Source: an uncultured Muribaculaceae bacterium (GTDB taxonomy: Bacteria > Bacillota_I > Bacilli_A > RF39 > UBA660). Taken from it: a DNA stretch of 62,100 nt. Below the pieces are notes generated by a model. That model searched no databases. It was not told the origin of the DNA and saw only the letters and a list, made by a program, of their open reading frames with translations. Location of the stretch: assembly GCA_964371705.1 (NCBI GenBank), contig CAYJNH010000001.1, positions 1-62,100 of the forward strand, read 5' to 3'. How positions within the stretch are numbered: the stretch's first letter is position 1; the number at the start of each line of letters is the position of its first letter. A program made the translations under genes and the position numbers. This document shows, piece by piece, positions 2,310-47,951 of the stretch.

Positions 2310-3017
2310 ATGAAAAAATTGTTTTTGCTAATACTTATAATAATACCAACTACAATAAACGCAGCTTGTACATATGAACAGCAAGCAGATTTAAGAGAAG
2401 AAGCTTCATTAATTGAAATAAGTTATGAAGAAATGGAAAGAGAAATAAATTCAAATGAATATATTCAGACAGAAGGTCAATTAAATAATGAAGGCTCAGA
2501 TGCTCCAGTAATTATAATAGAAAATTATTTTGACATTAATATTTTGAACTTAAGTGAAGAATTGTATATTGAAGTAACAAATGATATAGACGACTCTATT
2601 ATCACAATAAGCAAAAATAATGATGATCAAATTTACCAGTTCGAACACAATAAATTGACAAATGTTTACACATACACTTTTCAGATTTATGGTTCAGAAA
2701 ATTCAAGTTGCGAAGGTGAAATTTTTAAAGTAGTGTATTTAAAAGTTCCAAAATTGAATGAATACTATAATTACGATGCTTGTAATATACATAAAAATGA
2801 AGATGTTTGTCAAAAGTATACTACATTAGAAAATATAAGCATAGACAAATTTTATGAAACTATAAACTCAATTAATATTAATGGTGATAATACAAATATA
2901 CCAGAAAAACATGATGAATTAGAAAAAAATAATTATATAATCTATATTATTTTTGGTACAGGCGCTATATTAATAACAATTGCTAGTATAGTAATTGTTA
3001 AAAAGAAAAGGACATAA
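2310..3017 (+). CDS. module 1 gene A: Sec-signal protein with conserved cysteines and a C-terminal TM anchor (paralog of 6525..7256)
   Basis: Signal peptide MKKLFLLILIIIPTTINA. C-terminal TM helix plus basic tail VKKKRT. Clear homology to 6525..7256 (shared C.YE(Q/E)QA, YFDI.ILN, CQKYTT). Confidence 0.6.
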   Translation: MKKLFLLILIIIPTTINAACTYEQQADLREEASLIEISYEEMEREINSNEYIQTEGQLNNEGSDAPVIIIENYFDINILNLSEELYIEVTNDIDDSIITISKNNDDQIYQFEHNKLTNVYTYTFQIYGSENSSCEGEIFKVVYLKVPKLNEYYNYDACNIHKNEDVCQKYTTLENISIDKFYETINSININGDNTNIPEKHDELEKNNYIIYIIFGTGAILITIASIVIVKKKRT

Positions 3018-3020
3018 ATT

Positions 3021-5978
3021 ATGAAAGAAAAACAATTTTACATTATACTAATAACTTTGTTTTTTTTGTTTGCTTTCGCTGGTGAAGTAAAAGCAAATGT
3101 TTCTGTACATACTATTTATGATGTAGCACATGAAAATATAGAAACGGGATTGAGAACACCAAATAAAAGTTATTCATGGAAAACAACTGACGTAACAAAT
3201 AAAAATGGAAATCCTTATATAAAAGATGAAAGTCATACTACAAATCATTCATATACAACAAAGAAATATAGTATGACAGTTAATGGTAAAATATATTATC
3301 TATATTGTTTGGATGCTAACTTAAATTCTGTGACAAGAAATGCATACTACCCAGAATATCAATTGTTTTATCATGAAAATTTAGAATCACAAGCTTATGA
3401 TGCTGGTATGTTAGAAATTTTGTCAAAAGGTTATCACAGAGATAATACGAGTTATTCTGGCATCTCAGGAAACGATTTTTATTATGCAACTATGATTGCT
3501 CTTAGAGCCTATAGTGTAGGTTTTTGGAATAAAGGAGAAAATACTTTTACAGGTTCTTATCCTGAATATGCAATAATTGCAGGGAATTATGGAGCATACT
3601 GGGCAGCAAATGCTCCAACAGGGATTGTAGCTGACTCTATAGGTCATTTAAGTAATAGAACAAATGGTGGAATTAAATTATATAATAGGTACTTAAATTC
3701 AGGTGTTCCAACAAGACCAGGGACTAATTTTTATTTCGCAGAAGATTATAAGGAAAATATTATAGATACAGCAAAGTATTTATTTTATTCAGGCATTGTA
3801 GCAGCTGAAGAACATGCTGCAAAATATGGGCAAAATGTAACTCCAGAAAAAAGTGGTACTATTTCAGACCCGGTAATGCATGAGTCTAAAATTACATTAA
3901 ATAATGAAGGTTTCAAAGAAATAACAAGAACATACACTATGAATGCAACAGATTTTAGTAATGGTAAAATTACTAGTTTTAATATAGAAAAAGACTTAAG
4001 TAGCGAAATGAATATTACGTCTCAAATTTATAAAATAGATGGAAGTGAAGTTCCTTCATTAATCAATGTAGATTTATCGACTAATCCGAAAATAGAAATA
4101 ATATTAAAAATAGAGGCGCTAAAAACAGAAGATTGCAGTAATTTTAATTATAAAATTAATTATGAATATAGTTCGGAAAATACTACAGAGTCAGCAGGTG
4201 GCGGTGGTTACATAAGAGACAATGGAACACAAAAATTATATTTTTATGATGCAGATGTTTCTTCAGGTGGATCAGAAACTAGTTCAACAGAAAAATCAAT
4301 AAATGCAAACATAAATTTATGTCCCATATCATGTGATATAGAAGCAAGTTTTAAAAATGATTGTCAGAATTTAGATGAAGATTTACATAGTATAGGGTAT
4401 ATCAAAGAAGAAACCAATATAGTAAATTGTGTAATTAATAATTTAGATGAAGCAGGAAATAGTTATGTTGCCACAGGATGTGAATTTACAGATGGAAATA
4501 TTTTAATACCTGATGAAAATTCTTCAGCAGAATTATTAAACAATAATCCTTATTGTAGTATATCTTGTAAAGAAGATTACACAGATATAAGATATCCTGG
4601 AAAACAAATTGTGCAGGCAGGAAGATATTTTACAATTGGTGCAGAAATATCAGGTACTAAAAGTTGTTATACTGATGTAATAGATAAAGATTTATATGAA
4701 GAAAATATTCAAGATATATTAGATAGCATTAGGCCGTTAGAAGAAATAAAAGCGGAAATAGAATTAGAAACAAAAAAATTAAATGCATGTAGTACATGGG
4801 AAATAGATTTCAAACAAACTCCAGAAATAAAATATAGTTATAATTCTGGATACATAGATTTATTAAAAGGTACAGACGACGAATATTTGAATTTGTCATC
4901 ACAGGAACTAGATTCTCCAAATGTATTATATTGTACTGGGGAACTAAAAAGTGATGAATATAACGAATGTGCTTCCTCGACAACGCCAAATGTAAGTACT
5001 AAAAATTATAATTATAATGGAAGTACAATTTCTGTGTCAGTCAATCAAGCAAAATACTACAAATACAGTACAAGTAAAATCATGAGTTTCAGTACACCAA
5101 AAGTATTTTATACAATAGTAGGTAGTGGAGATATAACTTATGGAAAACCAGCAGACACAGAATCAATACAAATAGATGGACTACCTTTAAAAATAGAAGT
5201 ACCAACAGGGTTATATAATTTCGAATTTTTCATAGATGGTTTAGGAAGTTATTATGGAGATGACAATAATTGTGAATTAGGAAGATTAATAGATTCTGAT
5301 ACTACAAAAGATTCAGTTGATGAAACATTATCCCCAACAGTATTTAAAGCAGACTATTTATGTGAGTATGAACATCCTTATATACCTACAGAAGAATGCG
5401 TAGATTGTGAAACTGGAGGAACATTAAATATTTGCCCAAATTGTATAGTAACAATCGGGGGATTATACTTTAGAGTTTATTCTTCAAATAATTTTGAACC
5501 TAATCCCAATAGAGATTTAGGTTATAACTGGAGTTATAACTATCAAACTAATGATATCTATGGATTCGTTGCAAATAAAGCAGCAATAACACTAGGTTAT
5601 GATCATCGATATGAAATAACTAATGATTTTGGAATACTAATCGAAGGTGAAGAAATATATGCAGAAACTCCAGTATTACGAGTTAATTTAACACCAGAAG
5701 TAGCAAATTATGTAAGAAATTACAATAATAGTGAATCAAGTTATACCAACAATACATTAGAGTGTTATGACTATACAGAAAATGGTGTAGTTTATGAAAA
5801 TGTATTTTGCTACAGTGAATTTTTAGATGATTTACAAGAAGATAACTCAACATTTGTTGAATTTGATTCAAGACCTTTAGACAATAGAGAAAAAAGTTCA
5901 TCGGGATATTTTGAAACTTTCACTGAAGGTATACCTGCGATAGGTCCAACAAGTGTTGGTGGACCATCGTGGAAGTAA
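3021..5978 (+). CDS. module 1 gene B: giant Cys-rich secreted protein (985 aa), paralog of 7256..10441
   Basis: Sec signal ...FAFAGEVKA. Blocks conserved with the paralog include NPYCSISCKEDY, GTKSCYTD, LNACSTWE and CVDCE.GGTLNICPNCIVTIG.LYFRVYSSNNF. Both share the C-terminus PTSVGGPSWK. No LPXTG motif or C-terminal TM helix. Confidence 0.7.
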   Translation: MKEKQFYIILITLFFLFAFAGEVKANVSVHTIYDVAHENIETGLRTPNKSYSWKTTDVTNKNGNPYIKDESHTTNHSYTTKKYSMTVNGKIYYLYCLDANLNSVTRNAYYPEYQLFYHENLESQAYDAGMLEILSKGYHRDNTSYSGISGNDFYYATMIALRAYSVGFWNKGENTFTGSYPEYAIIAGNYGAYWAANAPTGIVADSIGHLSNRTNGGIKLYNRYLNSGVPTRPGTNFYFAEDYKENIIDTAKYLFYSGIVAAEEHAAKYGQNVTPEKSGTISDPVMHESKITLNNEGFKEITRTYTMNATDFSNGKITSFNIEKDLSSEMNITSQIYKIDGSEVPSLINVDLSTNPKIEIILKIEALKTEDCSNFNYKINYEYSSENTTESAGGGGYIRDNGTQKLYFYDADVSSGGSETSSTEKSINANINLCPISCDIEASFKNDCQNLDEDLHSIGYIKEETNIVNCVINNLDEAGNSYVATGCEFTDGNILIPDENSSAELLNNNPYCSISCKEDYTDIRYPGKQIVQAGRYFTIGAEISGTKSCYTDVIDKDLYEENIQDILDSIRPLEEIKAEIELETKKLNACSTWEIDFKQTPEIKYSYNSGYIDLLKGTDDEYLNLSSQELDSPNVLYCTGELKSDEYNECASSTTPNVSTKNYNYNGSTISVSVNQAKYYKYSTSKIMSFSTPKVFYTIVGSGDITYGKPADTESIQIDGLPLKIEVPTGLYNFEFFIDGLGSYYGDDNNCELGRLIDSDTTKDSVDETLSPTVFKADYLCEYEHPYIPTEECVDCETGGTLNICPNCIVTIGGLYFRVYSSNNFEPNPNRDLGYNWSYNYQTNDIYGFVANKAAITLGYDHRYEITNDFGILIEGEEIYAETPVLRVNLTPEVANYVRNYNNSESSYTNNTLECYDYTENGVVYENVFCYSEFLDDLQEDNSTFVEFDSRPLDNREKSSSGYFETFTEGIPAIGPTSVGGPSWK

Positions 5979-6410
5979 GGGGGAAAAATAAATGAAAAGT
6001 GCATACTGGGGATATTGGTTAGTAATATTAGGAGTATTTATCGTAGTGGTAATGCTCCTGGTACAAAACCTAACAACAGGAAATACTCAAAGTTATTCAT
6101 TAATAAAAGAAATAAGTGAAGCATCAATGTTAGATGCGGTTGATTATGGATATTATAGAATATATGGAGAAGCAAAAATAAATAAAGAAAAATTCATGGA
6201 AAGTTTTATAAGAAGAATGGCAGAGTCTACAAGTGGTTCAACAACATACGAAATAGAATTCTATGAAATATATGAATCACCACCAAAAATAAGTGTAAGA
6301 GTATCAAGTAAATCATCTACATTTAATATAGTAGGAGATTCAACAGATTTTGATATAGTAGATAAAATAGATGCTGTATTAGAAGGTAAACCAATCAATG
6401 GATAAAAGGA
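5944..6410. repeat. copy 1 of a 467-bp direct repeat (copy 2 at 10407..10873)
   Basis: By eye the copies are identical base for base, from gtccaacaagtgttggtgg to gataaaagga at a constant offset of 4463 bp. The flanks diverge immediately on both sides. Confidence 0.85.
5992..6405 (+). CDS. module 1 gene C: 137 aa protein with short leader MKSAYWG followed by a hydrophobic helix (possible pseudopilin-like protein)
   Basis: Good RBS (gggggaaaaataaATG). Amino-acid sequence identical to 10455..10868. Confidence 0.6.
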   Translation: MKSAYWGYWLVILGVFIVVVMLLVQNLTTGNTQSYSLIKEISEASMLDAVDYGYYRIYGEAKINKEKFMESFIRRMAESTSGSTTYEIEFYEIYESPPKISVRVSSKSSTFNIVGDSTDFDIVDKIDAVLEGKPING

Positions 6411-6430
6411 TTATTTTAATCTTTTTTTTT
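6405..6430 (+). terminator. weak AT-rich hairpin plus T-run after module 1
   Basis: aaaaggatta / taatctttt stem followed by T9. Present only after copy 1; copy 2 runs straight into the next gene. Confidence 0.35.
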
Positions 6431-6524
6431 GCATCAACAAAGTAAAAACAGGCTTTATTACGACTTGTATTTTATATAATATTATGCTAAAATTAAAGAG
6501 TATATAAGAAAGGCGGAAGATAGA

Positions 6525-7256
6525 GTGAAAAAAACAATTTTAACACTTTTATTACTAATTTTTCCAACAACAATAAGTGCAGCGTCCGAATGTAGTTATG
6601 AGGAGCAAGCAAACTTAACAGATGGAGCAAATTTAATAAAAGTAAGTTATAAAGAAATGGAAGGGATAGTTGATCCAGATACTTATGTGCCTTCAGATGG
6701 AGTTTTAAGTGATCCAGATGCTTTAGAAAATTATGAAAAAACTTATAATTATTTTGATATAGAAATATTAAATATGACAGAAGATTATTATATAGTTATG
6801 AAAAATGACATTAATAGTGACGTTGTTACAATTAATTTTTCAGATTTAAATAATGGTATTTATGTGCATACACAAGAAGATTTACAAAATATATATTCAT
6901 ATACTTTTGAAATATATTCTTCAAGTAGCACTGGGTGTGAAGATGAAGTATACGGCATAAAATATTTAACTACGCCAAAACTTAATTTCTATGCATTATA
7001 TGATGTTTGTGAATCATATCAAGATGAAGCAATTTGTCAAAAATACACTACAATAGAAGGTATGAATGACTCTGATTTTTTTGATAAAATTTCAGATTTA
7101 GATGAACAAAAAGAAACTCAGGCAGAAGATGATCAGGAAAAGGGCGAATCAAGTAATATTATTGGAACTGTAATTTGGTTCATAATTATAACGTTATTAA
7201 TAATCAGTGGGGTTGTTTTATTAGTGATGATGCAAAAAAGAAGGAGAAAATTATAA
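6525..7256 (+). CDS. module 2 gene A: Sec-signal, C-terminally anchored Cys-containing protein (paralog of 2310..3017)
   Basis: GTG start after aaaggcggaag. Signal peptide ...IFPTTISA. C-terminal TM helix plus basic tail QKRRRKL. Confidence 0.6.
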   Translation: MKKTILTLLLLIFPTTISAASECSYEEQANLTDGANLIKVSYKEMEGIVDPDTYVPSDGVLSDPDALENYEKTYNYFDIEILNMTEDYYIVMKNDINSDVVTINFSDLNNGIYVHTQEDLQNIYSYTFEIYSSSSTGCEDEVYGIKYLTTPKLNFYALYDVCESYQDEAICQKYTTIEGMNDSDFFDKISDLDEQKETQAEDDQEKGESSNIIGTVIWFIIITLLIISGVVLLVMMQKRRRKL

Positions 7257-10200
7257 TGAATAAATTTTTAAAATTATTTATAATATCTATTTTTGCATTA
7301 ATTTTAGTTAATGTTCAAAATGTTGAAGCATATTTAACACCAGATAGAAATTATGTTGTACAAGCAGATAAAAGTAATTTTTTTACAGGATTATATTATT
7401 CTACACCTAAAAGTTATGGTGTAGAAAGTGTGCAACATGAAAATGGTATGCCTTATCAAAAAAGTGGTAATGGTTCATATAAATACAATACAACACGATA
7501 TTTCATACAAACAGAAAAAGGACTTACAGCAATATACTGTTTAGATCCTAATTTAGATGGTTCTTTACAAATATCTTATTCAACAGATGCAATGTTTATG
7601 AGAGCTGAGTCTTCTTTAGAACAAAGAAGTTACGAAGCTGGATTAATTGAAATATTAAATAATGGATTTAATAATGTAGGTAATAATTCATATACATATG
7701 ACGGAACTACAATATCAAGCGACGATTACTATTATGCTACTATGTTGGCAGTAAGAGCTTACGCTATAGGTTTTTGGAATTTTGGTTACGGAAACGGTGC
7801 TAATACTGGAACTTATAGACAACATGCTGCAGTTATAGGAAGTTATGGAGAATACTGGGGTAGTCGTACTGGAATTTTAAATTATCCAGAAACAGATGAA
7901 AACAAAACAGCAATATATGATTCGCTTAACATATTAAGTGAAAAATTTAATAATGAAAATGATATGACTACTAGATACGCTAATAGCGGTCTAGGTAAAG
8001 CTTATGATAATTTTTACTTTAATGTTCCATCAGGTGCTGCAGAAAAAACTATAATGTTAGTAGCTAGAGAATTATTTTATGATGGAGTAATTGGTGCTGG
8101 AGAATACGCTGAATCTCAAGAAAATGGTGAAGGTAGTGGTAAATTGGAAATGGGCACAGCAAGTGTTTCATCTACATATATAGATCCAACTACTGAAAAA
8201 CCTAATTTGCCTGAAGATACACAAAAAGCTCCAGAATTCTATCCTTTTGAAGTATATAAAAACATAATAGTAACTATTCCAGAAGATGAAAGTGATACAG
8301 ATGAAGATTCTGATACTGATACTGAAACTGAAGAGGAAAATGATTCATATTACAAAGTAGAATATAGAACTTATTTAATGACTGCTTCAGAATTTGGAGA
8401 AGGTAAAATTACTGCTTTTAGCATTGATTTTCCAGAAAATGAACAAGCAAAATTAAATAAAGTTGATTATTATGTAACAAATGAAGATGGAGTATATGAA
8501 AAAGTGGATACTCTAATTAATTTGGATTTATCAAGTAATCCGAAAATTAAATTTATAATGGAAGTGCAATCAAAAATAGATGGTTTAGTTAAATTTGATG
8601 ATTGTAATAATTCTAAATATACTATTAACTATTCATATGAAACTAAAAATGTTGGTCCAAGTGGAGAAGGGGCATTTTTAGGAAATGGGAATGCAAGTTA
8701 CCAAAGATTTGCGTTATGGGAAGCTGGTACAGATGTGCCGTTTGTAACTATAAATAAAACATATAAACCAGCAGAATGCGAAGTTCCAGAAGAAAAAAAT
8801 TGTGGAACTATAATGGATGTAGCAAATAATTGTACTGAATTTGGAGAAGGAGCATACGGGGATGCAATTAATGTTGGGTCTATTACTGCACCAGAAGATA
8901 TAATAAATTGTGTAGTAAATGGCGAAGATGATGCAGGAAATTCATATACAGCAGAAGGTTGTGCGCTTGATAACGAAAAAAATATATATGTTCCTGAAAC
9001 AACAGAAAACTTATTGACAGACAATCCGTACTGTAGCATTTCATGTAAAGAAGATTACGAATATTTCAAATTTCCAGGAATACAAGAAACACAAAACGGA
9101 AGATATTTCAGTATAGGAGCTGAAATAAAAGGAACAAAAAGTTGTTATACAGATCAAATTGATAAAAATCAATATAATCAAGACATCGAAGAAATAATTA
9201 ATTCTGGAAAGTCTTTTGAAGAAGTAAAAGAAGAAGTTGAAGAAGCAACTGCTAAATTAAATGCATGTAGTACATGGGAAGTTAATTTTAGTCAAAGTCC
9301 AGAAATTGAATATGAATATGATTCAGGATATTTTGATTTAATTCAAAATGATGAGCATAAAGAATTAGATTTAGTATCGCAAGATTTTGAAACGCCAAAT
9401 ACAATGTACTGTGCAGGAGCACTTACAGATGAAAAATATAATAGCTGCAACGGATCTAGTGAAAGAGAATTAAAAGAAGATGTAATACATTATCAAGGTC
9501 AAGAAATAACACTTTCAATTTATACAGCTGATTACTATAAATACAGTTCAACAAAAGTGATGAATTATACTACTCCAAAAGTATTTTATACAGTAATGGG
9601 TACAGGAGATATAATTTATGGTCAAGCTGGAGATGATGATACACTAGTAAATGGGTTACCAGTTAAGGTAGATGTTCCAGAAGGAATGCATAAATTCGAA
9701 TTTAATATTAAAAACCTAGGAAGTTTCTATGATGATAAAAATAATTGTACTACAGGAAGATTGATTGACAGTAGTCCAGATACGGAATCAGTAGCGGATG
9801 TTTTAGGTGTTAATGGATATAAAGGTGATTATACTTGTAGTTATGAAATTCCAGAACCTGAATGTGTAGACTGTGAAGTTGGAGGGACATTAAATATTTG
9901 TCCAAATTGTATAGTAACAATAGGAGATTTATATTTTAGAGTTTATTCATCAAATAACTTTAATCCAAACGACAGAGAATTAGGATATAACTGGAGTTAT
10001 GACTACGATGTTAATGATAAATTTGGATTCGTTATGGAAAAAGCAAATTTAACACTTAAAGGTGAAAATGGAATTGAAGAACTTAAAGAACAAGCTTATG
10101 AAAATGATCCTATTTTAACTGTAAGTTTAACACCAGATATGGCTGATGAAATCAGAGATTATAATAGTAATAATAGTTACACTAATAGTACACTTGTATG

Positions 10201-10441
10201 TTATGATACAGTAAGTGATACTGGTGAAGTATATGAAAATACACAATGTTATAGTTCATATTTAGACAGCTTATCTAGTGATAACAAACATAGTGACAAC
10301 TTCAACTTTATTGATAGTAGAAGTCCTGATGTAGAAGATAGAATAAGTAATAAAAATGAATATTTCGTTCCATTCTTCGGAGAAGAAACAACAATACCTG
10401 AAAATAGTCCAACAAGTGTTGGTGGACCATCGTGGAAGTAA
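7256..10441 (+). CDS. module 2 gene B: giant Cys-rich secreted protein (1061 aa from the internal ATG), paralog of 3021..5978
   Basis: The ORF track begins at 7175. However, RBS aaggag plus ATG at 7256 (TAATG overlap with the upstream stop) gives a proper signal peptide, MNKFLKLFIISIFALILVNVQNVEA. It has the same conserved Cys blocks and the PTSVGGPSWK C-terminus. Confidence 0.7.
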   Translation: MNKFLKLFIISIFALILVNVQNVEAYLTPDRNYVVQADKSNFFTGLYYSTPKSYGVESVQHENGMPYQKSGNGSYKYNTTRYFIQTEKGLTAIYCLDPNLDGSLQISYSTDAMFMRAESSLEQRSYEAGLIEILNNGFNNVGNNSYTYDGTTISSDDYYYATMLAVRAYAIGFWNFGYGNGANTGTYRQHAAVIGSYGEYWGSRTGILNYPETDENKTAIYDSLNILSEKFNNENDMTTRYANSGLGKAYDNFYFNVPSGAAEKTIMLVARELFYDGVIGAGEYAESQENGEGSGKLEMGTASVSSTYIDPTTEKPNLPEDTQKAPEFYPFEVYKNIIVTIPEDESDTDEDSDTDTETEEENDSYYKVEYRTYLMTASEFGEGKITAFSIDFPENEQAKLNKVDYYVTNEDGVYEKVDTLINLDLSSNPKIKFIMEVQSKIDGLVKFDDCNNSKYTINYSYETKNVGPSGEGAFLGNGNASYQRFALWEAGTDVPFVTINKTYKPAECEVPEEKNCGTIMDVANNCTEFGEGAYGDAINVGSITAPEDIINCVVNGEDDAGNSYTAEGCALDNEKNIYVPETTENLLTDNPYCSISCKEDYEYFKFPGIQETQNGRYFSIGAEIKGTKSCYTDQIDKNQYNQDIEEIINSGKSFEEVKEEVEEATAKLNACSTWEVNFSQSPEIEYEYDSGYFDLIQNDEHKELDLVSQDFETPNTMYCAGALTDEKYNSCNGSSERELKEDVIHYQGQEITLSIYTADYYKYSSTKVMNYTTPKVFYTVMGTGDIIYGQAGDDDTLVNGLPVKVDVPEGMHKFEFNIKNLGSFYDDKNNCTTGRLIDSSPDTESVADVLGVNGYKGDYTCSYEIPEPECVDCEVGGTLNICPNCIVTIGDLYFRVYSSNNFNPNDRELGYNWSYDYDVNDKFGFVMEKANLTLKGENGIEELKEQAYENDPILTVSLTPDMADEIRDYNSNNSYTNSTLVCYDTVSDTGEVYENTQCYSSYLDSLSSDNKHSDNFNFIDSRSPDVEDRISNKNEYFVPFFGEETTIPENSPTSVGGPSWK

Positions 10442-10873
10442 GGGGGAAAAATAAATGAAAAGTGCATACTGGGGATATTGGTTAGTAATATTAGGAGTAT
10501 TTATCGTAGTGGTAATGCTCCTGGTACAAAACCTAACAACAGGAAATACTCAAAGTTATTCATTAATAAAAGAAATAAGTGAAGCATCAATGTTAGATGC
10601 GGTTGATTATGGATATTATAGAATATATGGAGAAGCAAAAATAAATAAAGAAAAATTCATGGAAAGTTTTATAAGAAGAATGGCAGAGTCTACAAGTGGT
10701 TCAACAACATACGAAATAGAATTCTATGAAATATATGAATCACCACCAAAAATAAGTGTAAGAGTATCAAGTAAATCATCTACATTTAATATAGTAGGAG
10801 ATTCAACAGATTTTGATATAGTAGATAAAATAGATGCTGTATTAGAAGGTAAACCAATCAATGGATAAAAGGA
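10407..10873. repeat. copy 2 of the 467-bp identical direct repeat
   Basis: See copy 1 (5944..6410). Confidence 0.85.
10455..10868 (+). CDS. module 2 gene C: 137 aa leader-plus-hydrophobic-helix protein, identical to 5992..6405
   Basis: Protein identical to 5992..6405. Followed 15 nt later by the CpaB-like gene. Confidence 0.6.
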   Translation: MKSAYWGYWLVILGVFIVVVMLLVQNLTTGNTQSYSLIKEISEASMLDAVDYGYYRIYGEAKINKEKFMESFIRRMAESTSGSTTYEIEFYEIYESPPKISVRVSSKSSTFNIVGDSTDFDIVDKIDAVLEGKPING

Positions 10874-10883
10874 GGATAAAAAA

Positions 10884-11654
10884 GTGAAAGTATCAGGAGG
10901 AATAAAAAGATTTTTAACCAACAAAAATACTATTACTTTATTAGCTGTAATAGTAGGGATTATTGCACTATGGTTTTTCTATAGTATGAGAGTTAATGAT
11001 GCTATTGATCCAATAAATATCCCTTACGCAGTAGAAGAAATAGGAGCAACTCAAGAAATATTAGAGGAGAACATAAAGTTTGTAGAAGTTAATAGACAAC
11101 TTCTAGATACAATAGAAGTTATACAGTTAAGTAATCAACTTATTGGAAAATATGTAACAACAGGAACATCAATACCTGCAGGAGGATTCTTTTACAATAG
11201 TCAAGTTGTAGATAAACAAGAATTACCAAACGCAGTATTTGATGATATACCTGAAGGATATACACTATTTTCTTTAAACGTTGATATAAATTCAACTTAT
11301 GGTAACTCAATTTATCCAGGTGATAAAATAGACTTATACGTGCAAGCGAATGATGATGTTCAAGATAAAATAATGTTTGGTAAATTTGTAGAAAGTATAG
11401 AAGTTTTAGCCGTTAGAGATAGTGGACAAAATGATATTTTTGAAAGCACAACTACTGGAAATGCAAGTTTGTTATTATTTGCAGTAGATGATGACATGTT
11501 TCACTTGTTAAGTCAAGCTCAAACAATTAGTGGACTTCAAATAATACCAGTTCCTAGAAATAAGGAATATACTACAGAGTCGTCTACGACTGAGGTAAAA
11601 AGTGAATATATAAAACAATATATATTATCTAAAACATTAACAGTAGAAGAATAA
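10884..11654 (+). CDS. CpaB/RcpC-like pilus assembly protein (N-terminal TM anchor)
   Basis: GTG start 8 nt after GGAGG. Single N-terminal TM helix and beta-rich remainder. Sits directly upstream of the CpaF-like ATPase, as in Tad loci. The call is mostly contextual. Confidence 0.5.
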   Translation: MKVSGGIKRFLTNKNTITLLAVIVGIIALWFFYSMRVNDAIDPINIPYAVEEIGATQEILEENIKFVEVNRQLLDTIEVIQLSNQLIGKYVTTGTSIPAGGFFYNSQVVDKQELPNAVFDDIPEGYTLFSLNVDINSTYGNSIYPGDKIDLYVQANDDVQDKIMFGKFVESIEVLAVRDSGQNDIFESTTTGNASLLLFAVDDDMFHLLSQAQTISGLQIIPVPRNKEYTTESSTTEVKSEYIKQYILSKTLTVEE

Positions 11655-11681
11655 AAAAAAGAATAAAAGGTGGTGATTAGT

Positions 11682-12773
11682 GTGAATGATGCAATATTTT
11701 CACAATTAGATTTTGGTCCAATTAAAGAATTTTTAGAAGATGAAAATATAACAGATGTTTCATATACTAATGGCGGCCAAATATGGTTAAAAACACTAGA
11801 TAAAGGTGTATATCAAGTTGAAAAAGAAGGGATTAACAATGCCCTTCTTGAAAAACTTGCTTTCCAGTGTTCTAATGTAATGGGTACGACATTTAATATG
11901 GCACACCCTTTTTTAGATGCTGAAAGTGCTGAATTACGTTTAAACTTTGTTCACGAGTCAATAGCTACAAATGGTATTGCTTGTACAATACGTAAAACTC
12001 CAGCAAAAATAAGATTAAATAAAGAAAAATTACTAGATGAAAAATATGTTACTGAGGAATTACACAATTTCTTATTAACTTGTGTAAGTGGACATTGTAA
12101 TATAATTGTTAGTGGAGAAACAGGTTCAGGTAAAACAGAGTTAGTTAAATACCTAGCTTCACACACTAAAGAAAATGAGAAAATAATTACAATAGAAGAT
12201 ACATTAGAGTTACATTTAGATAAAATTTTTCCACACAGAGATATAATTGCAATGAAGACTAATAACATTGCTTCATATTCTGAAGTATTAGTTACATGTA
12301 TGAGACAAAATCCAAGATGGATTTTACTTTCAGAGGTAAGAACAGCAGAAGCTGTAACAGCAGTAAGAAACTCAATATCATCAGGACATAATATTATATC
12401 TACTATTCATTCAGATAGTGCTAGAAATGTACCAATGCGTTTATATAGTTTATTGGAATCTAATATAGATATAGATCAGTTTTTAAAATCTATACATAGA
12501 TATGTACAATTAGCTATACATGTTAAAGGGTATCTTAGTAAAGAATTAGGAAGATTTCAAAGAGAAATTGTTGAAGTGTGTGAATTTTATGTAAATGAAG
12601 AAAATGAACCACAACATAATATAATATATAAAAGAAATTTAGATGGTAAATTATTAATAAATAATCCGTCTAGTTCTTTAATAAATTATTTAGGTTCACA
12701 AGGAGTAGTTATTCCAGAAAACTTATTTGTGACTGAAAATGCAGAAGCAAATAGTTTTATTGAAAGTTTATAG
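11682..12773 (+). CDS. CpaF/TadA-type secretion ATPase (VirB11/T2SSE superfamily)
   Basis: Walker A motif SGETGSGKTE, then ITIEDTLEL, MRQNPRWILLSEVR and STIHS, at a size typical for CpaF. The ORF track starts at 11670; GTG at 11682 is better spaced from aaaggtggtga. Confidence 0.85.
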   Translation: MNDAIFSQLDFGPIKEFLEDENITDVSYTNGGQIWLKTLDKGVYQVEKEGINNALLEKLAFQCSNVMGTTFNMAHPFLDAESAELRLNFVHESIATNGIACTIRKTPAKIRLNKEKLLDEKYVTEELHNFLLTCVSGHCNIIVSGETGSGKTELVKYLASHTKENEKIITIEDTLELHLDKIFPHRDIIAMKTNNIASYSEVLVTCMRQNPRWILLSEVRTAEAVTAVRNSISSGHNIISTIHSDSARNVPMRLYSLLESNIDIDQFLKSIHRYVQLAIHVKGYLSKELGRFQREIVEVCEFYVNEENEPQHNIIYKRNLDGKLLINNPSSSLINYLGSQGVVIPENLFVTENAEANSFIESL

Positions 12774-12781: not shown

Positions 12782-13687
12782 ATGGTAGCGGGTATAGAAT
12801 TAGTTATAATTATAGCACTTGTAATATTTGTAATTATCTATAGAATGAATCCAGGTGAAAATGCTTATAAATCTATAGTTAAAAATGTTAACACAGTTTA
12901 CGATAAATATGCTCCTTATTCATATAAAGTAGTAAGAGAAAAAACAAAAGAATTAGGACAAGAATATAGTGCAAAACAGTATACTTCTCAAATAATTATA
13001 TTTGCAGGAGTAGCAGCAATAATATCATATTTTTACTTTTATAGTATAATTTGGTGTATATTTTATTCAGTAATAGCGATAGCTTTTGTTCCTTATTTAT
13101 CATATTTAAGAACTAAAAGAATTTATAGTGAGTACATATTTGAACAAATTCAAATATATACTACAAATGTAATAATGGAGTTCAATACGACTCAAAGTTT
13201 TATTAAGTCATTAGAGGGAGTTAGAGATTCAGGAATACTTGAAGATCCTGTATTATCTGATTTAAAAAGAATGATAGCTATGTCATATGAAAATGGTACT
13301 ATCGATGAATCAATAATATATTTTAATGAGAAATATCCATATTATATGGTTAAAAATATGAATCAATTATTCTTACAAATAACTAAAGAAGGGGCAAGAG
13401 ACTCAGGGCAAGCACTTGAAAATATGGCAATGGATATAGATGCTTTAGTAGAAGGTGTTTACAGAGATCAAATAGACAGAAAAAACTTCCATTCAAGATT
13501 TGTAAAATTTGGTATGGTTTTATTTGCTTTAGTAATAGCACTTCAATATATGTTAGGTAGAGATAATTATTTAGACATGCTGGATCTGTGGTATGTACAA
13601 ATAGTCTTACATTTAATTATTGCTGTAAATGCTTACTTTTTAGTAACAGGAGAAAAGTATTATAATGAAAATGTGGGGGTTGAATAA
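12782..13687 (+). CDS. TadB-like inner-membrane platform protein (T2SSF-like)
   Basis: RBS taggagg. TM helix, then a cytoplasmic helical domain, then C-terminal TM helices. One of a pair immediately after the ATPase. Confidence 0.55.
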   Translation: MVAGIELVIIIALVIFVIIYRMNPGENAYKSIVKNVNTVYDKYAPYSYKVVREKTKELGQEYSAKQYTSQIIIFAGVAAIISYFYFYSIIWCIFYSVIAIAFVPYLSYLRTKRIYSEYIFEQIQIYTTNVIMEFNTTQSFIKSLEGVRDSGILEDPVLSDLKRMIAMSYENGTIDESIIYFNEKYPYYMVKNMNQLFLQITKEGARDSGQALENMAMDIDALVEGVYRDQIDRKNFHSRFVKFGMVLFALVIALQYMLGRDNYLDMLDLWYVQIVLHLIIAVNAYFLVTGEKYYNENVGVE

Positions 13688-14475
13688 TGCAAATAGAAAT
13701 GATTATTATTACTGCCATAATATTATTAATAATGACTATAAATGGACATTTAAGTGTATCTAAATTAGTTACTGATAATGAAATTATATTTAGAAAATTA
13801 AAAGAAGAAGATTGGGATTTTTATGTAAGAGCAAGATACGGAGAACACGTTAATCCTAATGTTTTATTCAACAATAGAATAAAATATGGATTGCTAGTGT
13901 TTGCGATACTTATTATTGCATTTATTCAAGACTTTTCTAGTTTATCTATTTTAATATCATTAATTGCAGGTTTCTTAATGTTTAAATATAACTATGTACA
14001 AATAAAAGGATATTACAAAAAAAATATGCATCATATAGATTCAATGTTACCTCATTATCTTAAAAGTATAGAGATATTGATACAACATTATACAGTGCCG
14101 GTAGCTTTAGGTAAATCAATAGATGATGCACCAGAGATATTTAAACCAGGATTAAAAGAATTAATAAATGAAATAAATACAGGTGATGGAACAATAAACC
14201 CATATATGAATTTCGCTAAAAAATATCCAGTTAGAGATTCAATGAGAATGATGAGACTTTTATACCGTTTATCATTAGGTAGACAAGAAAGAAAACAAGA
14301 ACAAATACTTACATTTTCTAAATCTATTTCAAATTTACAACAAAAAGCAAGAGATACAAGATATAAAAATAGACTTGAAAAAATGGAAGGTAAAACAATG
14401 GCAATGTTAGTAGGTACAGGACTTGGAGTAATGGTTTTGCTTATCTTAGCCGTACTTCAATTAATGAATTTATAA
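13687..14475 (+). CDS. TadC-like inner-membrane platform protein (T2SSF-like)
   Basis: ATG overlaps the upstream stop (TAATG). LPHYLKSIEILIQHYTVPVALGKSI resembles the T2SSF core. TM helices at both ends. Confidence 0.55.
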   Translation: MQIEMIIITAIILLIMTINGHLSVSKLVTDNEIIFRKLKEEDWDFYVRARYGEHVNPNVLFNNRIKYGLLVFAILIIAFIQDFSSLSILISLIAGFLMFKYNYVQIKGYYKKNMHHIDSMLPHYLKSIEILIQHYTVPVALGKSIDDAPEIFKPGLKELINEINTGDGTINPYMNFAKKYPVRDSMRMMRLLYRLSLGRQERKQEQILTFSKSISNLQQKARDTRYKNRLEKMEGKTMAMLVGTGLGVMVLLILAVLQLMNL

Positions 14476-14558: not shown

Positions 14559-14813
14559 ATGAAAGAAGCAACAGGAGAACTAAATATGACTGTAATAACA
14601 GTTGTAGCAATAGCAGCAGTAGGAGCATTTTTCTATGTGTTCGTATGGCCAGCAATACAAGGAAGTATAGAGCAAAACACAAGATGTGCAGCAGCACAAG
14701 CATGTACCACAAATGCTGATGGTACATCAATGACTTGTTCATATGACGAAGATGGCGATGGTACATTTGAAGTAACAAATTTACAGTGTCCAATAACAGA
14801 TGCAACGAATTAA
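14559..14813 (+). CDS. small pilin-like protein 1 (84 aa), leader MKEATG followed by a hydrophobic helix
   Basis: Strong RBS. Short charged leader ending in Gly, then a hydrophobic segment of about 22 aa and a small 4-Cys globular part ending in CPITDAT. Confidence 0.65.
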   Translation: MKEATGELNMTVITVVAIAAVGAFFYVFVWPAIQGSIEQNTRCAAAQACTTNADGTSMTCSYDEDGDGTFEVTNLQCPITDATN

Positions 14814-14825
14814 GAAGAAGATAAT

Positions 14826-15110
14826 ATGAAAGAAGCAACAGGAGAACTAAATATGACTGTAATAACAGTCGTAGCAATAGCAGCAGTAGGAGCATTTTTC
14901 TATGTGTTCGTATGGCCAGCAATACAAGGAAGTATAGAGCAAAATACAAGATGTGCAGCAGCGCAAGCTTGTACTGATAATGGTGATGGAACTATGTCGT
15001 GTTCATATGATGAAAATGGTGATGGCGATTTTACTGATACAAATGATGGAGATATGAATGGATCATTAATTTGTCCAATAACGGATGCAACTACAAACAC
15101 TGCACCATAA
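14826..15110 (+). CDS. small pilin-like protein 2 (94 aa), tandem duplicate of pilin 1
   Basis: The first 50 aa are identical to pilin 1, with only a few synonymous nucleotide differences. The C-terminal part has diverged. Confidence 0.6.
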   Translation: MKEATGELNMTVITVVAIAAVGAFFYVFVWPAIQGSIEQNTRCAAAQACTDNGDGTMSCSYDENGDGDFTDTNDGDMNGSLICPITDATTNTAP

Positions 15111-15130
15111 AAAAGAAAAGGAAATAAATT

Positions 15131-15361
15131 ATGAAAGAGGCTGTAGGAGAATTAAACACAACTGTAATTGTTGTACTAGCAATAGGGGCTTTTTCAGCCT
15201 TTTTTTTCACTGTGTTATGGCCTATGATAGATAATAATTTTGAAGAAAGTTCGAATTGTAGTGACGCTATTTGTGGTTCAGAAAAAAATGCAAATAACGA
15301 GGTAGAATGTTATATTAAAGGAAACGAAGATAATACATTCTTTTGTCCATATAAGGGGTGA
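15131..15361 (+). CDS. small pilin-like protein 3 (76 aa), leader MKEAVG
   Basis: Same architecture as pilins 1 and 2, with 4 Cys in the C-terminal part. Confidence 0.6.
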   Translation: MKEAVGELNTTVIVVLAIGAFSAFFFTVLWPMIDNNFEESSNCSDAICGSEKNANNEVECYIKGNEDNTFFCPYKG

Positions 15362-15367: not shown

Positions 15368-16186
15368 ATGAAAGAAGCTATAGGAGGAACATTTTTATTC
15401 AATATAGTAATATTATTTATATTGCTTTTTACTGGAATAATGACTGTTACTATCAATAGATCCAAAGCTTTTGCAGTAAAAGATGATATTGTGGGTGTTA
15501 TAGAAAAAAACAATGGCGAAATAAGTTCTTTAGACGGTATACATGATGAAATAGTAGAAGCTATGACAAATGATTCATATAGAGCTGTAGGAACATGTCC
15601 TGATGGCTATACTGGTTATAATAGAGAAGGTGTATTATCTGGAGGTATATCAAATGCTTCAGAAGGATCGTCAATATGTATTCAAATGATAGAATCTGGT
15701 GATGTTATTGAAGAAGGTTCTCAAGGATCATATAATAAAATAACACCATCAGTGGATTATTACAAAGAATCAGGTAAATTAGTTCAAGTTAATTTATCAT
15801 ATGAAATTAATAGCGTTGAAAGCAAAAGAAAAATATTTTTATCATCATTTTATATGGAAAAAAATGGTAATAAAACCTATGATTACATAAGGGTTAACTA
15901 TGATATAGTAGATATTACTTTATCTGCCAAAGAAATGATTATTTATTATAAAGATGGAACTAAAATAGTAGGAGAAGTAAAAAGTATAGATGAAATAGAT
16001 TCTCCTCCAAATAATATATACAATATAAGTGATGGCAGTGAAACTGATATTACAGTAGAAAAAACTAGATCATGTTATTACAAAATAATGGTTTTTTATA
16101 ATCTGGATATACCAGTATTAAAAAGTATATTTAATTTTAATTTAATAGGTGAAACGAAGGTAGTAACAGGGTGTGATTTTAGTTAG
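15368..16186 (+). CDS. pseudopilin-like protein (272 aa; TadE/TadF/TadG-like role), leader MKEAIG
   Basis: Leader plus hydrophobic helix. Shares GTCPDGY/GKCP and the C-terminal ...FYNLDIPVL..FNF.L.GET motif with 16199..16645. Confidence 0.5.
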   Translation: MKEAIGGTFLFNIVILFILLFTGIMTVTINRSKAFAVKDDIVGVIEKNNGEISSLDGIHDEIVEAMTNDSYRAVGTCPDGYTGYNREGVLSGGISNASEGSSICIQMIESGDVIEEGSQGSYNKITPSVDYYKESGKLVQVNLSYEINSVESKRKIFLSSFYMEKNGNKTYDYIRVNYDIVDITLSAKEMIIYYKDGTKIVGEVKSIDEIDSPPNNIYNISDGSETDITVEKTRSCYYKIMVFYNLDIPVLKSIFNFNLIGETKVVTGCDFS

Positions 16187-16198
16187 GAGGAAATAAAA

Positions 16199-16645
16199 AT
16201 GAGAGAAGTACAAGGAACAACATGGATATTTGGTCTTGTTATTACTTTTATATTTTTATTTGCTGCTTTTTTAATTTTAGCAATAAATTATACTGATTCA
16301 TTTCGAATAAGAAATGATATTATTACTATAATAGAAGAGTATGAAGGTTATCACTCTACGAGTGCTGAAATTATAAATGATTTTTTACTTGCTGAAGGAT
16401 ATAAAACAACAGGAAAGTGTCCAACCAGTAATAATGAATCAGAACCAGTTTATCAAACTGTAAGTAACTTAGATTCATATACTGTTATAAATGCAGAAAA
16501 TGGTACAAACTATTCGTACTGTGTAAAAAATGAAGACGGCATATTTGAAATAATTTTATTTTATAAATTCAATTTGCCAGTGATTGGAAACTTTTTAACC
16601 TTTCAAATAAAAGGTACAACAAATAAAATAATGGATTTTGAATAA
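16199..16645 (+). CDS. pseudopilin-like protein (148 aa), leader MREVQG
   Basis: Strong RBS aggagg. Leader plus hydrophobic helix. Paralogous C-terminal motif FYKFNLPVIGNFLTFQIKGTT. Confidence 0.5.
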   Translation: MREVQGTTWIFGLVITFIFLFAAFLILAINYTDSFRIRNDIITIIEEYEGYHSTSAEIINDFLLAEGYKTTGKCPTSNNESEPVYQTVSNLDSYTVINAENGTNYSYCVKNEDGIFEIILFYKFNLPVIGNFLTFQIKGTTNKIMDFE

Positions 16646-16657: not shown

Positions 16658-17650
16658 ATGAATGTAATAGTATCAAATAATTATCAAACACTTTTAGGTA
16701 CACTTGAAATAGATGTAATAAAAAGCATCAATGGAGTATTTGAAGTTTCGGAAATAATAAATCAATTTAAAAATTTCTTTTATAATAAAATGATTATTGA
16801 TGTAACTGCTATAAAAGATTATGAAAAAATAGAGGTCATTCAAGAATTATCAATGAATTTTGATATGAACAATGTAATATTACTATTAGATGATTCACAA
16901 ATAGTAAATTCACCTAGCTATTTATCACAGTTAGTATCAATGGGGATATATAACTTTACAAAAAAAGGTGAAGTTGTTACTTTTTTAATAGATAATCCAA
17001 ATTCATATAAAGATGTAGCAAATTATCAACATTTAAATAATCAACCAGAGAGTGAACAAATTAAATTAAATAGCAGTGCAGGTGTTGATAAAGGTTTTAT
17101 TGGTCAAAGAATTATTGGCATAAAAAATATGACAGTACATGCTGGTTCTACTACACTGGCATATATATTAAAAACACATTTACAAAAATATTATAGTGTT
17201 AAATGCATAGAACTAGATAAAAATGATTTTTCATATTTTGGAGATAAAGAACTTCTTAATACAACATCGGATAATATACATAATTTTATAAGAATGAATA
17301 GTGGAATAGAGGTAATTATAGTAGATTTAAATAATTCAGGTGAAATTCCAAATTCTGAAACATTATACTTAATTGAACCAGGAATTATTAAGTTAAATAA
17401 ATTAATCAAACAAAATAACAGAATATTTGATGCACTAAAAAACAGTAAAATAATATTAAATAGAAGTACACTAAATAGTAAAGATGTAGTAGATTTTGAA
17501 AAAGAATCAGGGAGTAAAGTATTTTCAAATATTCCTAATATAGATGATAAAATAGATAAAGAGGCTTCAATAGTAAGTTTGTTAACATTATTAGGTTTCA
17601 CAAGATTAAATGAAGATAAAGAAAATAAAGGTATTTTTGGTATATTTTAG
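16658..17650 (+). CDS. TadZ/CpaE-like localisation protein (receiver-like N-domain plus ParA/MinD-like domain with degenerate P-loop)
   Basis: IIGIKNMTVHAGSTTLAYIL occupies the position of the MinD-type KGGxGK[ST]T loop but lacks the Lys. No TM helix. Position in the Tad-like locus supports the call. Confidence 0.4.
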   Translation: MNVIVSNNYQTLLGTLEIDVIKSINGVFEVSEIINQFKNFFYNKMIIDVTAIKDYEKIEVIQELSMNFDMNNVILLLDDSQIVNSPSYLSQLVSMGIYNFTKKGEVVTFLIDNPNSYKDVANYQHLNNQPESEQIKLNSSAGVDKGFIGQRIIGIKNMTVHAGSTTLAYILKTHLQKYYSVKCIELDKNDFSYFGDKELLNTTSDNIHNFIRMNSGIEVIIVDLNNSGEIPNSETLYLIEPGIIKLNKLIKQNNRIFDALKNSKIILNRSTLNSKDVVDFEKESGSKVFSNIPNIDDKIDKEASIVSLLTLLGFTRLNEDKENKGIFGIF

Positions 17651-17704
17651 TTGACATAATAACTAATATTATATAGAATATAAAAAAGGAAAAGGAGTGA
17701 TTAT

Positions 17705-18148
17705 ATGTTAACGCTAGCATTTTGTGCAGAAACATGGTCAATATGGAAATTAGTAGGAGATATACTAACAATATTTAAAATAGTAATTCCTATAATTATA
17801 ATAATAATGGGAGCTATTGATTTAGGAAAAGCAGTAGTATCAAGTAAAGAAGATGAAATAAAAAAAGCAACAGGATCTTTAATGAGAAGATTTATTGCAG
17901 GTATTATAATATTCTTTATACCAACAATAGTAAGTGTAGTATTTAATGTACTAGATAACTTTGGAGAAATTAGAAAAGATTATACAATATGTTCGACATG
18001 TGTATCAACACCTAGCGAATGTAGAGCAGTAGCTCTTGATTATTGTGATTATAATGACGAAGGTGAAAGTCAATTAAACGAAGAAGAGGACAACGATTTA
18101 CCATGTTTAAGTGAAGATGAATTGTTTCCAGAAATAATTGAAGAGTAA
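17705..18148 (+). CDS. two-TM membrane protein with Cys-rich acidic C-terminal tail (paralog A)
   Basis: RBS aaaggag. The N-terminal region of about 95 aa is nearly identical to 18241..18639. Tail: CSTCVSTPSECRAVALDYCDYNDEGE... Confidence 0.55.
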   Translation: MLTLAFCAETWSIWKLVGDILTIFKIVIPIIIIIMGAIDLGKAVVSSKEDEIKKATGSLMRRFIAGIIIFFIPTIVSVVFNVLDNFGEIRKDYTICSTCVSTPSECRAVALDYCDYNDEGESQLNEEEDNDLPCLSEDELFPEIIEE

Positions 18149-18240
18149 AATCTTCTTTTTTTATGTAAAGTAAGTCAAATATATTGACTAAATAAAAAAA
18201 ATTTTGTAAAATAAGAATATAGAAAAGAGAGAGTGATTTT

Positions 18241-18639
18241 ATGTTAACATTAGCGTTTTGTGCAGAAACTTGGTCAATATGGAAATTAATTGGAGATATA
18301 CTAACGATATTTAAAATAGTAATTCCAGTAATTATAATAATAATGGGAGCTATTGATTTAGGAAAAGCAGTAGTATCAAGTAAAGAAGATGAAATAAAAA
18401 AAGCAACAGGATCTTTAATGAGAAGATTTATTGCAGGTATTATAATATTTTTTGTACCAACAATAGTAAATGTGGTATTTGGGGTAATTGATAATTTCAA
18501 TGGAGATGTTAAAAGTGACTTTTCAGTATGTTCAACTTGCTTAGCATCACCTAGTCAATGTCAATCTGCATCAAAAGAATACTGCGCAATTGCTGAAAAT
18601 GCTGCGGATTGTGTAGGTATTGTTTACGATACAGAATAA
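18241..18639 (+). CDS. two-TM membrane protein with Cys-rich C-terminal tail (paralog B)
   Basis: Near-identical N-terminal two-helix core. Diverged tail: CSTCLASPSQCQSASKEYCAIAENAADC. Confidence 0.55.
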   Translation: MLTLAFCAETWSIWKLIGDILTIFKIVIPVIIIIMGAIDLGKAVVSSKEDEIKKATGSLMRRFIAGIIIFFVPTIVNVVFGVIDNFNGDVKSDFSVCSTCLASPSQCQSASKEYCAIAENAADCVGIVYDTE

Positions 18640-31397: not shown

Positions 31398-31474
31398 GGG
31401 GAATTAGCTCAGTTGGCTAGAGCACCTGCCTTGCACGCAGGGGGTCAAGGGTTCGAGTCCCTTATTCTCCACCA
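31398..31474 (+). tRNA. tRNA-Ala (anticodon UGC), CCA encoded
   Basis: Cloverleaf folded by hand: acceptor GGGGAAU/AUUCUCC with the G3:U70 identity pair, anticodon loop CUUGCAC, T-loop GGTTCGAGTCC, and a 3' CCA. Confidence 0.95.
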
Positions 31475-47937: not shown

Positions 47938-47951
47938 AAGGGAGAAAATAT

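Follow-up and report, generated by a model that had tools for sequence, protein, structure and literature searches.

In this study, we analyzed positions 1 to 62,100 of contig CAYJNH010000001.1 (assembly GCA_964371705.1; this whole stretch of 62,100 nucleotides is hereafter called the window), which was deposited under the name of an uncultured Muribaculaceae bacterium, and we followed up two tandem gene modules at positions 2310–10873. This region is the variable head of a conserved, approximately 16-kb Tad-like pilus (type IV filament) operon in a very low-GC gut Bacilli bacterium. Each module encodes a membrane-anchored protein with conserved cysteines (the anchor), a giant Cys-rich secreted protein (the giant), and a 137-amino-acid (aa) membrane protein of the family DUF5411. 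The two anchors and the two giants have diverged heavily, whereas the last codons of the giant gene and the complete DUF5411 gene are identical at every nucleotide (nt) in both modules. The account that we favor, with a modest lean toward it, is that this segment was recently copied to a position behind the first giant, and that a C-terminal tag of the giants would dock these putative adhesins onto DUF5411 and the pilus machine. It draws on sequence comparison and on analogy with known pilus adhesins.

The longest exact run between the modules at a fixed offset of 4463 nt measures 467 nt and joins positions 5944–6410 (repeat copy 1, forward strand) to positions 10407–10873 (repeat copy 2, forward strand), exactly as a previous sequence-only reading of this DNA had described it. 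The block comprises the last 11 codons of the giant gene (PTSVGGPSWK plus stop), a 13-nt spacer carrying a GGGGG ribosome-binding site, the entire DUF5411 gene, and 5 nt beyond its stop codon. When the two modules are aligned globally, the anchor and giant genes show 37–82% identity per 100-column alignment window, with one such window at 17% that consists mostly of gaps; identity is then 100% from the last 11 codons of the giant to 5 nt past the DUF5411 stop. Both edges of the block are sharp in the exact-run scan and in the sliding identity profile, and the modules are 45–70% identical outside it. The open reading frames (ORFs) and their translations also agree with the gene content reported earlier. 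All six genes lie on the forward strand: anchors A1 (235 aa, 2310–3017) and A2 (243 aa, GTG start, 6525–7256), giants G1 (985 aa with 21 Cys, 3021–5978) and G2 (1061 aa, 7256–10441), and the two 137-aa DUF5411 copies (5992–6405 and 10455–10868). G2 starts at ATG 7256, which overlaps the A2 stop codon as TAATG (translational coupling). At the protein level, A1 and A2 share 37% identity and G1 and G2 share 39%.

A scan of species-representative genomes provided 78 related loci for comparison. DUF5411 is located just upstream of a CpaB-like gene and an ATPase gene in 74 of the 78 loci, and in most of them it lies 7–20 nt downstream of a Cys-rich giant of roughly 900–2000 aa. An anchor homolog of about 245 aa precedes every giant in the related loci. 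The conserved system given by this gene order is (anchor–giant)n–DUF5411–CpaB–ATPase–platform–pilins–p330–T4SS_pilin-like. The median identity to the window protein across the loci is 81% for the ATPase, 70% for the TadB-like protein, 65% for the TadC-like protein, 64% for DUF5411, 48% for the CpaB-like protein, 43–53% for the small pilins, 40% for the 148-aa pilin-like protein, 31% for the anchor, and 28–31% for the giant. The contrast is also visible against the nearest relative (L005), in which the flanking DNA is 71–80% identical and the giants and anchors share only 33–37% and 33–49% of their amino acids, respectively; the best match of A2 is the A2 of this relative, at 49%. Nucleotide similarity to L005 ends at window position 2413, inside the A1 signal peptide, and resumes at 10409, within 2 nt of the left edge of the repeat. 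By these comparisons, the cassette genes are hypervariable, and everything from the last approximately 10 residues of the giant onward (tag, DUF5411, CpaB-like protein, ATPase, platform proteins, and pilins) is conserved. The cross-species data support the earlier proposal that constraint falls on the tag and the 137-aa protein, with ectodomains that are hypervariable in an adhesin-like manner. In the L005 assembly, a scaffold gap of 100 N (9617–9716) lies inside giant 2, and the annotation splits the gene there. Many of the closest relatives (L005–L011, L013, L041, L055, L056, L066, L067, and L069) were likewise deposited as 'uncultured Muribaculaceae bacterium' (Bacteroidota). These labels look wrong, judging from the low-GC Bacillota-like sequence and the same Bacilli-type operon.

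Two anchor–giant cassettes are present in eight species, including that of the window. Five of the other seven (L005, the nearest, and L006, L038, L070, and L080) possess a single DUF5411 gene behind the distal cassette, and the remaining two carry two copies that are 79% (L010) and 75.5% (L053) identical at the nucleotide level, compared with 100% in the window. Because DUF5411 is single-copy in five of these seven species and generally lies in front of the CpaB-like gene, we do not count it as part of the duplicable unit, which on this comparative evidence is the two-gene cassette of anchor and giant. The three-gene module of the sequence-only reading therefore stands as a description of gene order but not as the unit of duplication, since DUF5411 belongs to the pilus block, of which copy 2, in the ancestral position, is the first gene. 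The extra DUF5411 copy would most simply be a recent gain and not an ancestral third gene, and a gain is the most economical solution because neither the nearest relative L005 nor L006 has copy 1.

Chance is excluded as a source of the 467-nt identity, since DUF5411 orthologs of the nearest species are only 84% identical in nucleotides and paralogs 76–79%. That purifying selection alone, acting on the 137-aa protein and the tag, keeps the copies identical, as the homogenizing constraint of the earlier reading would have it, is hardly credible. DUF5411 and the tag are indeed strongly conserved at the protein level, but the identity spans all synonymous sites as well as the non-coding spacer, and the synonymous-site comparison refutes this explanation: the nearest-species ortholog, at 91% amino-acid identity, retains only 84% of the nucleotides, the tag codons of L005 differ synonymously, and DUF5411 pairs elsewhere are only 76–79% identical, so selection cannot explain the DNA identity. 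From these sequence data, the identity reflects a very recent non-reciprocal copy or gene conversion, and the other cause put forward earlier, recent gene conversion, is supported in that the identity stems from recent recombinational copying, whether by gene conversion or by duplicative insertion. The 467-nt repeat in itself is ordinary recombination.

The right edge of the block suggests how the copy may have been made. A weak A/U hairpin followed by a U9 run lies at 6404–6431 (forward strand) after copy 1, with a folding energy of −5.8 kcal/mol (z = −2.6). The terminator-like hairpin noted earlier at this position is thus present, but it is weak, and a consensus terminator scan does not call it. 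Copy 2 leads into the pilus genes, as was also noted, the GTG start of the CpaB-like gene at 10884 being preceded by AAGGAGG. The first 7 nt of the 5' arm of the hairpin (AAAAGGA) are inside repeat copy 1; at copy 2 the same 7 nt belong to the ribosome-binding site of the CpaB-like gene, and at copy 1 they begin the hairpin arm. In all four two-cassette relatives inspected (L005, L006, L053, and L070), a hairpin follows directly behind the stop codon of the first giant, and we infer from this a microhomology junction at the old terminator. In the event that we propose, a segment beginning in the tag codons and ending 5 nt past DUF5411 would have been copied non-reciprocally, with the region behind giant 2 as the source and that behind giant 1 as the target. 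Its left junction would lie in the sole pre-existing homology, the tag codons, and the right junction at the 7-nt A-rich microhomology AAAAGGA shared with the stem of the old terminator of giant 1.

The principal alternative is that two diverged DUF5411 copies already existed, as in L010 and L053, and that a conversion tract erased their differences with nothing inserted. We consider this unlikely, though two other species do carry DUF5411 behind each of two giants, and the tract ends on both sides where homology between the modules would end. It requires extra losses, given that L005 (the nearest examined) and L006 have no copy behind giant 1; copies at 76–79% identity offer few long identical runs in which recombination could start; and the right edge falls inside a terminator stem that in the relatives directly follows giant 1. 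What weighs against recent copying as the favored direction is that the choice between a gain and the conversion of an older copy rests on parsimony over few genomes, and that exact-protein look-ups of the window proteins returned no other assembly of the species. Two metagenome DNA scans, one with the tag–DUF5411 junction and one with a conserved DUF5411 stretch, also found nothing.

A wrongly resolved repeat or a strain chimera is very improbable. The contig is metagenomic, the 467-nt exact repeat exceeds the read length, and no independent assembly was found, which leaves room for such an artifact. However, the assembler path requires reads for both junctions, one leading from DUF5411 into the hairpin and anchor 2 and the other from DUF5411 into the CpaB-like gene, and given those junctions the tandem order is the only linear path; moreover, tandem cassettes occur in independent assemblies of seven other species, two of which have a locus with two DUF5411 genes. 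Unequal crossing-over between the two tags was considered and rejected, as it would yield three cassettes or one and not an extra DUF5411 gene. A search for an invertible switch found only AT-rich inverted repeats of low complementarity and no evidence of a programmed switch.

The giants themselves are very probably thioester-type adhesins, as indicated by the model and the sequence matches described here. In G1, a signal peptide is followed by a thioester-like domain at the N-terminus and then by Ig-like sandwiches and a Cys-rich C-terminal region of approximately 430 aa; the protein closes with a flexible tail ending in PTSVGGPSWK. Its AlphaFold2 (AF2) model (mean predicted local distance difference test score, pLDDT, 75.8) shows an N-terminal beta/helical lobe, Ig-like sandwiches, the Cys-rich C-terminal region, and a coil tail of low pLDDT in the monomer. 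The Foldseek search with this model, an analysis suggested in the sequence-only reading, gave as the top match the thioester-domain (TIE) protein BaTIE of B. anthracis (6fwv_A; E = 2.2e-4, probability 1.0), with low TM-scores for this multi-domain model. The giant family profile matches the S. pyogenes pilus tip adhesin Cpa (2xi9, E = 1.1e-3), with YC(L/I)D aligned to the thioester Cys, and 2 of 40 family members match Pfam TED (best E = 7.6e-5); the window giants themselves have no Pfam or NCBIfam match. A word-index protein search with G1 returned only two weak relatives and missed even the paralog G2, and an exhaustive profile search was needed, which found 304 clusters at 50% identity with the C-terminal ~430 aa as the conserved part.

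The residues that would form a thioester bond appear to be retained. Cys96 of the Y-C-L-D sequence ([YF]C[LIM][DN] motif) is invariant in 40/40 family members, and Gln404 (xQRhhh, mostly xQR[FLY]hh) is kept in 39/40 and, in the AF2 model, is placed on a predicted strand of the sandwich behind the helical lobe. In known proteins, the bond-forming Cys occurs in a [YFL]C-hydrophobic-hydrophilic motif and the Gln on a later beta-strand within a weak hydrophobic-Q-hydrophilic-hydrophobic-hydrophobic motif (PMC6194298), and the contexts of Cys96 and Gln404 agree with these motifs. The TQxxhW motif of helix alpha2 is degenerate in the giants, where the aligned segment reads A-T-x-[IL]-A-[LV]-R with Gln rare and Trp absent; the Gln and Trp of TQxxhW are not required for the thioester bond to form (PMC6194298). 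The idea that this ATQ-like segment holds the thioester Gln, which would then be lost, was rejected because TQxxhW is not bond-forming (PMC6194298) and Gln404 is conserved. Together, the Foldseek match, the Cpa profile, the TED matches, and the conserved Cys96 and Gln404 make the adhesin assignment very probable. A sortase signal of the LPXTG type is absent from the giants, which end in ...GGPSWK-COOH without a hydrophobic segment.

The anchor protein always travels with its giant and diverges with it. Both anchors have a signal peptide and a transmembrane segment near the C-terminus. In A1, a Sec signal peptide precedes a 4-Cys ectodomain, which an acidic linker joins to the C-terminal transmembrane helix, with KKKRT behind it; residues C23, C138, C162, C171, and N83 are invariant across homologs. 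Library scans (Pfam and NCBIfam) and a profile search against the Protein Data Bank (PDB) gave no relative of the anchors.

The extreme C-terminus of the giants is the conserved element next to DUF5411. A terminal GP[SA][WFY][KR]-COOH ends 72 of the 78 giants in the species loci and no other ORF among the 8774 in approximately 1.3 Mb of these loci. In L005, the tag-coding ends of the two giants differ at 4/33 positions, all of them synonymous or conservative, compared with 0/33 in the window, and both giants carry the tag although giant 1 has no DUF5411 gene behind it. Since the tags of L005 are kept despite synonymous differences, and even on a giant without an adjacent DUF5411, selection acts on the tag at the protein level, irrespective of the repeat. 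A large secreted adhesin whose last approximately 10 residues are conserved is a hallmark of the PilC/PilY1 type, and the giants share this feature. In L063, an extra CpaB-like gene (5563–6345) lies directly behind the first giant, whose tail is GPAKK and not the usual tag.

The 137-aa protein was identified as Pfam DUF5411 (PF17424) with an E-value of 1.8e-55 (187 bits against a cutoff of 30, covering 133/134 profile positions), and its homologs are 60–90% identical across many uncultured gut 'Bacilli' metagenome-assembled genomes. It has an N-terminal hydrophobic helix beginning MKSAYWG|YWL..., followed by an extracytoplasmic alpha/beta domain, and its leader M-K-x-x-x-W-G|Y-W-L resembles the short leaders of the operon pilins. 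Longer DUF5411 proteins of 230–285 aa with an added Cys-rich C-terminal domain occur in some species (P0066, P0096, P0097, P0099, P0104, and P0111; L027, 9986–10741; L053, 1193–2050), and several of them end in ...YC[KNR]. The Cys-rich C-terminal extensions of these long variants place the C-terminus of DUF5411 outside the cell. In L053, the long form (1193–2050) separates anchor and giant in the first cassette. A cis version, in which DUF5411 itself would end in the tag, was sought among the long variants; they bear the unrelated Cys-rich extension instead.

We propose that the tag serves as a docking peptide through which any adhesin produced would be attached to DUF5411 and, via DUF5411, to the pilus tip or the assembly (initiation) complex. 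DUF5411 would be a bitopic protein with pilin-like topology acting as the partner of the adhesin, and such a fixed interface would let the adhesin heads diversify or be swapped. The new copy would give the separately terminated cassette 1 its own coupled DUF5411 gene. The 467-nt direct repeats could also recombine, which would delete cassette 2 and place giant 1 directly before the pilus genes. A precedent for the docking is found in PilC/PilY1 and MshQ, whose last ~10 residues add a beta-strand in trans to the minor pilin PilK, and CpaL/TadG of Tad pili supplies such a strand in cis (PMC13533445). In its most specific form, the proposal is tentative: the giants would be covalent thioester adhesins at the tip of a Tad-like pilus, with the five-residue tag GP[SA]WK-COOH inserted in trans into DUF5411 as an unrecognized tip or initiation subunit. 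If correct, no earlier case of a tip adhesin docking by strand addition in trans would be known from a Tad-type or monoderm type IV filament, and thioester adhesins would be linked to type IV pili for the first time; adhesin cassettes would be duplicable, swappable, and diversifiable against a fixed socket.

Several results weigh against a minor-pilin-like docking role for DUF5411. Its AF2 model, with a low-confidence pLDDT of 62, shows a helix of 47 residues (3–49) followed by a sheet or small alpha/beta domain; neither the fold search nor the profile search gave a PDB match for DUF5411, and hhalign comparison with the pilin-like families of the operon reached a probability of only 9%, which is not significant. 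The residue before the putative cleavage site is Ala or Val instead of Gly in a few species. A motif scan found GxGD[VI]K of the A24 prepilin peptidases in no ORF of the window (1–62100) or of the 78 loci, and because of this absence a peptidase for the operon pilins is probably not encoded near the operon and may have its gene elsewhere in the genome. Covariation of deviant tags with conserved DUF5411 positions gave no clear signal, and phylogeny confounds this comparison. DUF5411 is also conserved far above the operon pilins (median 64% versus 40–53%), and its sequence conservation would fit a component of the membrane machine at least as well as a minor pilin.

These properties bear on the main rival of docking, which we regard as doubtful, that the tag and DUF5411 serve export. 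The Tad-like machine would then work as a type II secretion pseudopilus pushing the Sec-exported giants through the wall, with the tag as a secretion signal and DUF5411 as a membrane assembly or recognition component. It accords with the conservation of DUF5411, which is like that of the platform proteins and unlike that of the pilins, with its lack of demonstrable pilin homology, and with the classification of a Clostridia operon containing DUF5411 as 'secretion-related' (PMC9523054). The three major-pilin-like and two minor-pilin-like genes of the operon, however, are what is expected of a real fiber; a thioester adhesin domain is most useful when held on the cell or pilus; and each giant is paired with a membrane anchor partner.

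The pilus genes downstream of copy 2 are all on the forward strand. The first encodes a CpaB/RcpC-like protein of 256 aa (10884–11654), which matches PF16976 with E = 7.5e-7 (29.5 bits against a cutoff of 28.8); the assignment is marginal, as TIGR03177 (E = 7.9e-9, 35 bits) remains under its cutoff of 71. Two tandem CpaB-like genes are present in many species (L015–L019, L021, and many others; ~10.4–12 kb), compared with one in the window. A CpaF/TadA-like pilus assembly ATPase of 367 aa follows (11670–12773; PF00437 T2SSE, E = 2e-28), and then two polytopic membrane proteins of 301 and 262 aa (12782–14475), which are placed in the TadB/TadC position by conserved synteny and have no match to T2SSF or any other Pfam family. 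Three small pilin genes (84, 94, and 76 aa; 14559–15361) share the leader MKEA(T/V)G|ELN. They begin MKEATG|ELNMTV and lack both the Flp-type G/xxxxEY motif and any Flp match, and only a sub-threshold match to the archaeal Pilin_N family was obtained (E = 0.064). Two larger pilin-like proteins of 272 and 148 aa (15368–16645; leaders MKEAIG|G and MREVQG|T) are candidate minor pilins, and their N-terminal 110 aa are homologous to each other (hhalign probability 100%). The 3' end of the operon encodes a 330-aa conserved protein and two T4SS_pilin-like (PF18895) membrane proteins (16658–18639), and nearly all loci that reach far enough likewise end the operon with T4SS_pilin-like genes.

Smaller repeats are also found within the operon. 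Small pilins 1 and 2 share 167 nt at 94% identity (14559–14725 versus 14826–14992) that encode the leader and the hydrophobic N-terminal half, and their Cys-rich C-terminal halves differ, which is the same mosaic pattern as that of the 467-nt repeat on a smaller scale. Between the tandem T4SS_pilin-like genes (147 and 132 aa), a stretch of 267 nt is 93% identical (17695–17961 versus 18231–18497). One or two such genes 3' of the 330-aa gene are found in nearly all loci and are odd company for a Tad-like pilus. Upstream of anchor 2, a TG-extended −10-like element (TGCTAAAAT) is located within window positions 6453–6493, in an intergenic stretch that aligns with L005 at approximately 6262–6275. 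This element suggests a separate promoter for cassette 2 and the pilus genes.

On the opposite strand upstream of the operon are genes for an Rce1/CPBP-family intramembrane protease (1564–2286) and a metallophosphoesterase (737–1567), both conserved in L005, though not in loci that are more distant. The contig has a GC content of about 26% and carries an RNase P RNA of class B (27487–27826), and together these place it in the low-GC Bacillota. A tRNA-Ala(TGC) gene is found at 31398–31474, a T-box leader (47722–47913) precedes a 570-aa ORF (47916–49628), and adjacent ORFs of 441 aa (59012–60337) and 436 aa (60360–61670) share 141 nt at 71% identity as a tandem paralog pair.

The boundaries of the repeat may be of interest beyond the event itself, as they mark a functional seam: the copied segment consists of the tag and DUF5411, the parts that are also conserved across the 78 species. 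The system yields hypotheses on the role of DUF5411, a family of unknown function, on how a large non-pilin adhesin could be held by a type IV-like pilus in wall-bearing gut bacteria, and on thioester adhesins that work without sortase. Its carriers are uncultured commensals of the animal and human gut, and GP[SA]WK at the C-terminus provides a sequence handle for cataloguing their adhesins. We did not find the combination of thioester adhesin, anchor, tag, DUF5411, and Tad-like pilus described in the searchable literature.

In Neisseria pilE/pilS and Mycoplasma genitalium MgPar, gene conversion takes place between cassettes of surface structures, and the tracts are bounded by conserved sequence. 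The present case resembles these systems in the non-reciprocal copying between tandem or dispersed paralogs of surface structures, but the conserved docking end was copied here and not the variable part, and neither a silent-cassette repertoire nor a switching system is evident. With respect to gene content, the 'secretion-related' operons of Roseburia, Ruminococcus, and Eubacterium (PMC9523054) similarly place DUF5411 near a CpaF-type ATPase, a platform protein, and a large adhesion/invasion-like protein in gut Firmicutes. These are predicted operons of Clostridia hosts, for which, unlike the window, no tag, anchor partner, thioester domain, or cassette duplication is described.

Among adhesins, the TIE proteins (Cpa at the tip of the sortase-assembled pilus of S. 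pyogenes and BaTIE of B. anthracis; PMC6194298) share with the giants an N-terminal Cys/Gln thioester-like domain, Ig-like domains, and a pilus-associated role. The giants differ from them in having no LPXTG/sortase signal or transmembrane segment behind the C-terminal motif, in their degenerate TQxxhW, in a Cys-rich C-terminal region of 430 aa with no known relative, and in their link to a type IV (Tad-like) instead of a sortase pilus. PilC/PilY1 and MshQ are, like the giants, Sec-secreted non-pilin adhesins of ~1000 aa encoded beside small pilin-like genes of a type IV filament, and PilC/PilY1 likewise combines a conserved extreme C-terminus of ~10 residues with a variable body. The giants have no beta-propeller, their head is a thioester-type domain, and an additional membrane-anchored partner is always present. 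Compared with the PilC/PilY1–PilK pair, the partner DUF5411 is not demonstrably a pilin, a Tad-like machine of a monoderm is involved, and the docking is proposed here by inference. CpaL/TadG of the Caulobacter Tad pili (PMC13533445, PMC12607857) is also a large tip-associated protein whose extreme C-terminus is needed for assembly. CpaL has its own pilin-like N-terminal domain and supplies the strand in cis; the giant instead starts with an ordinary signal peptide, and a separate gene encodes the small membrane protein.

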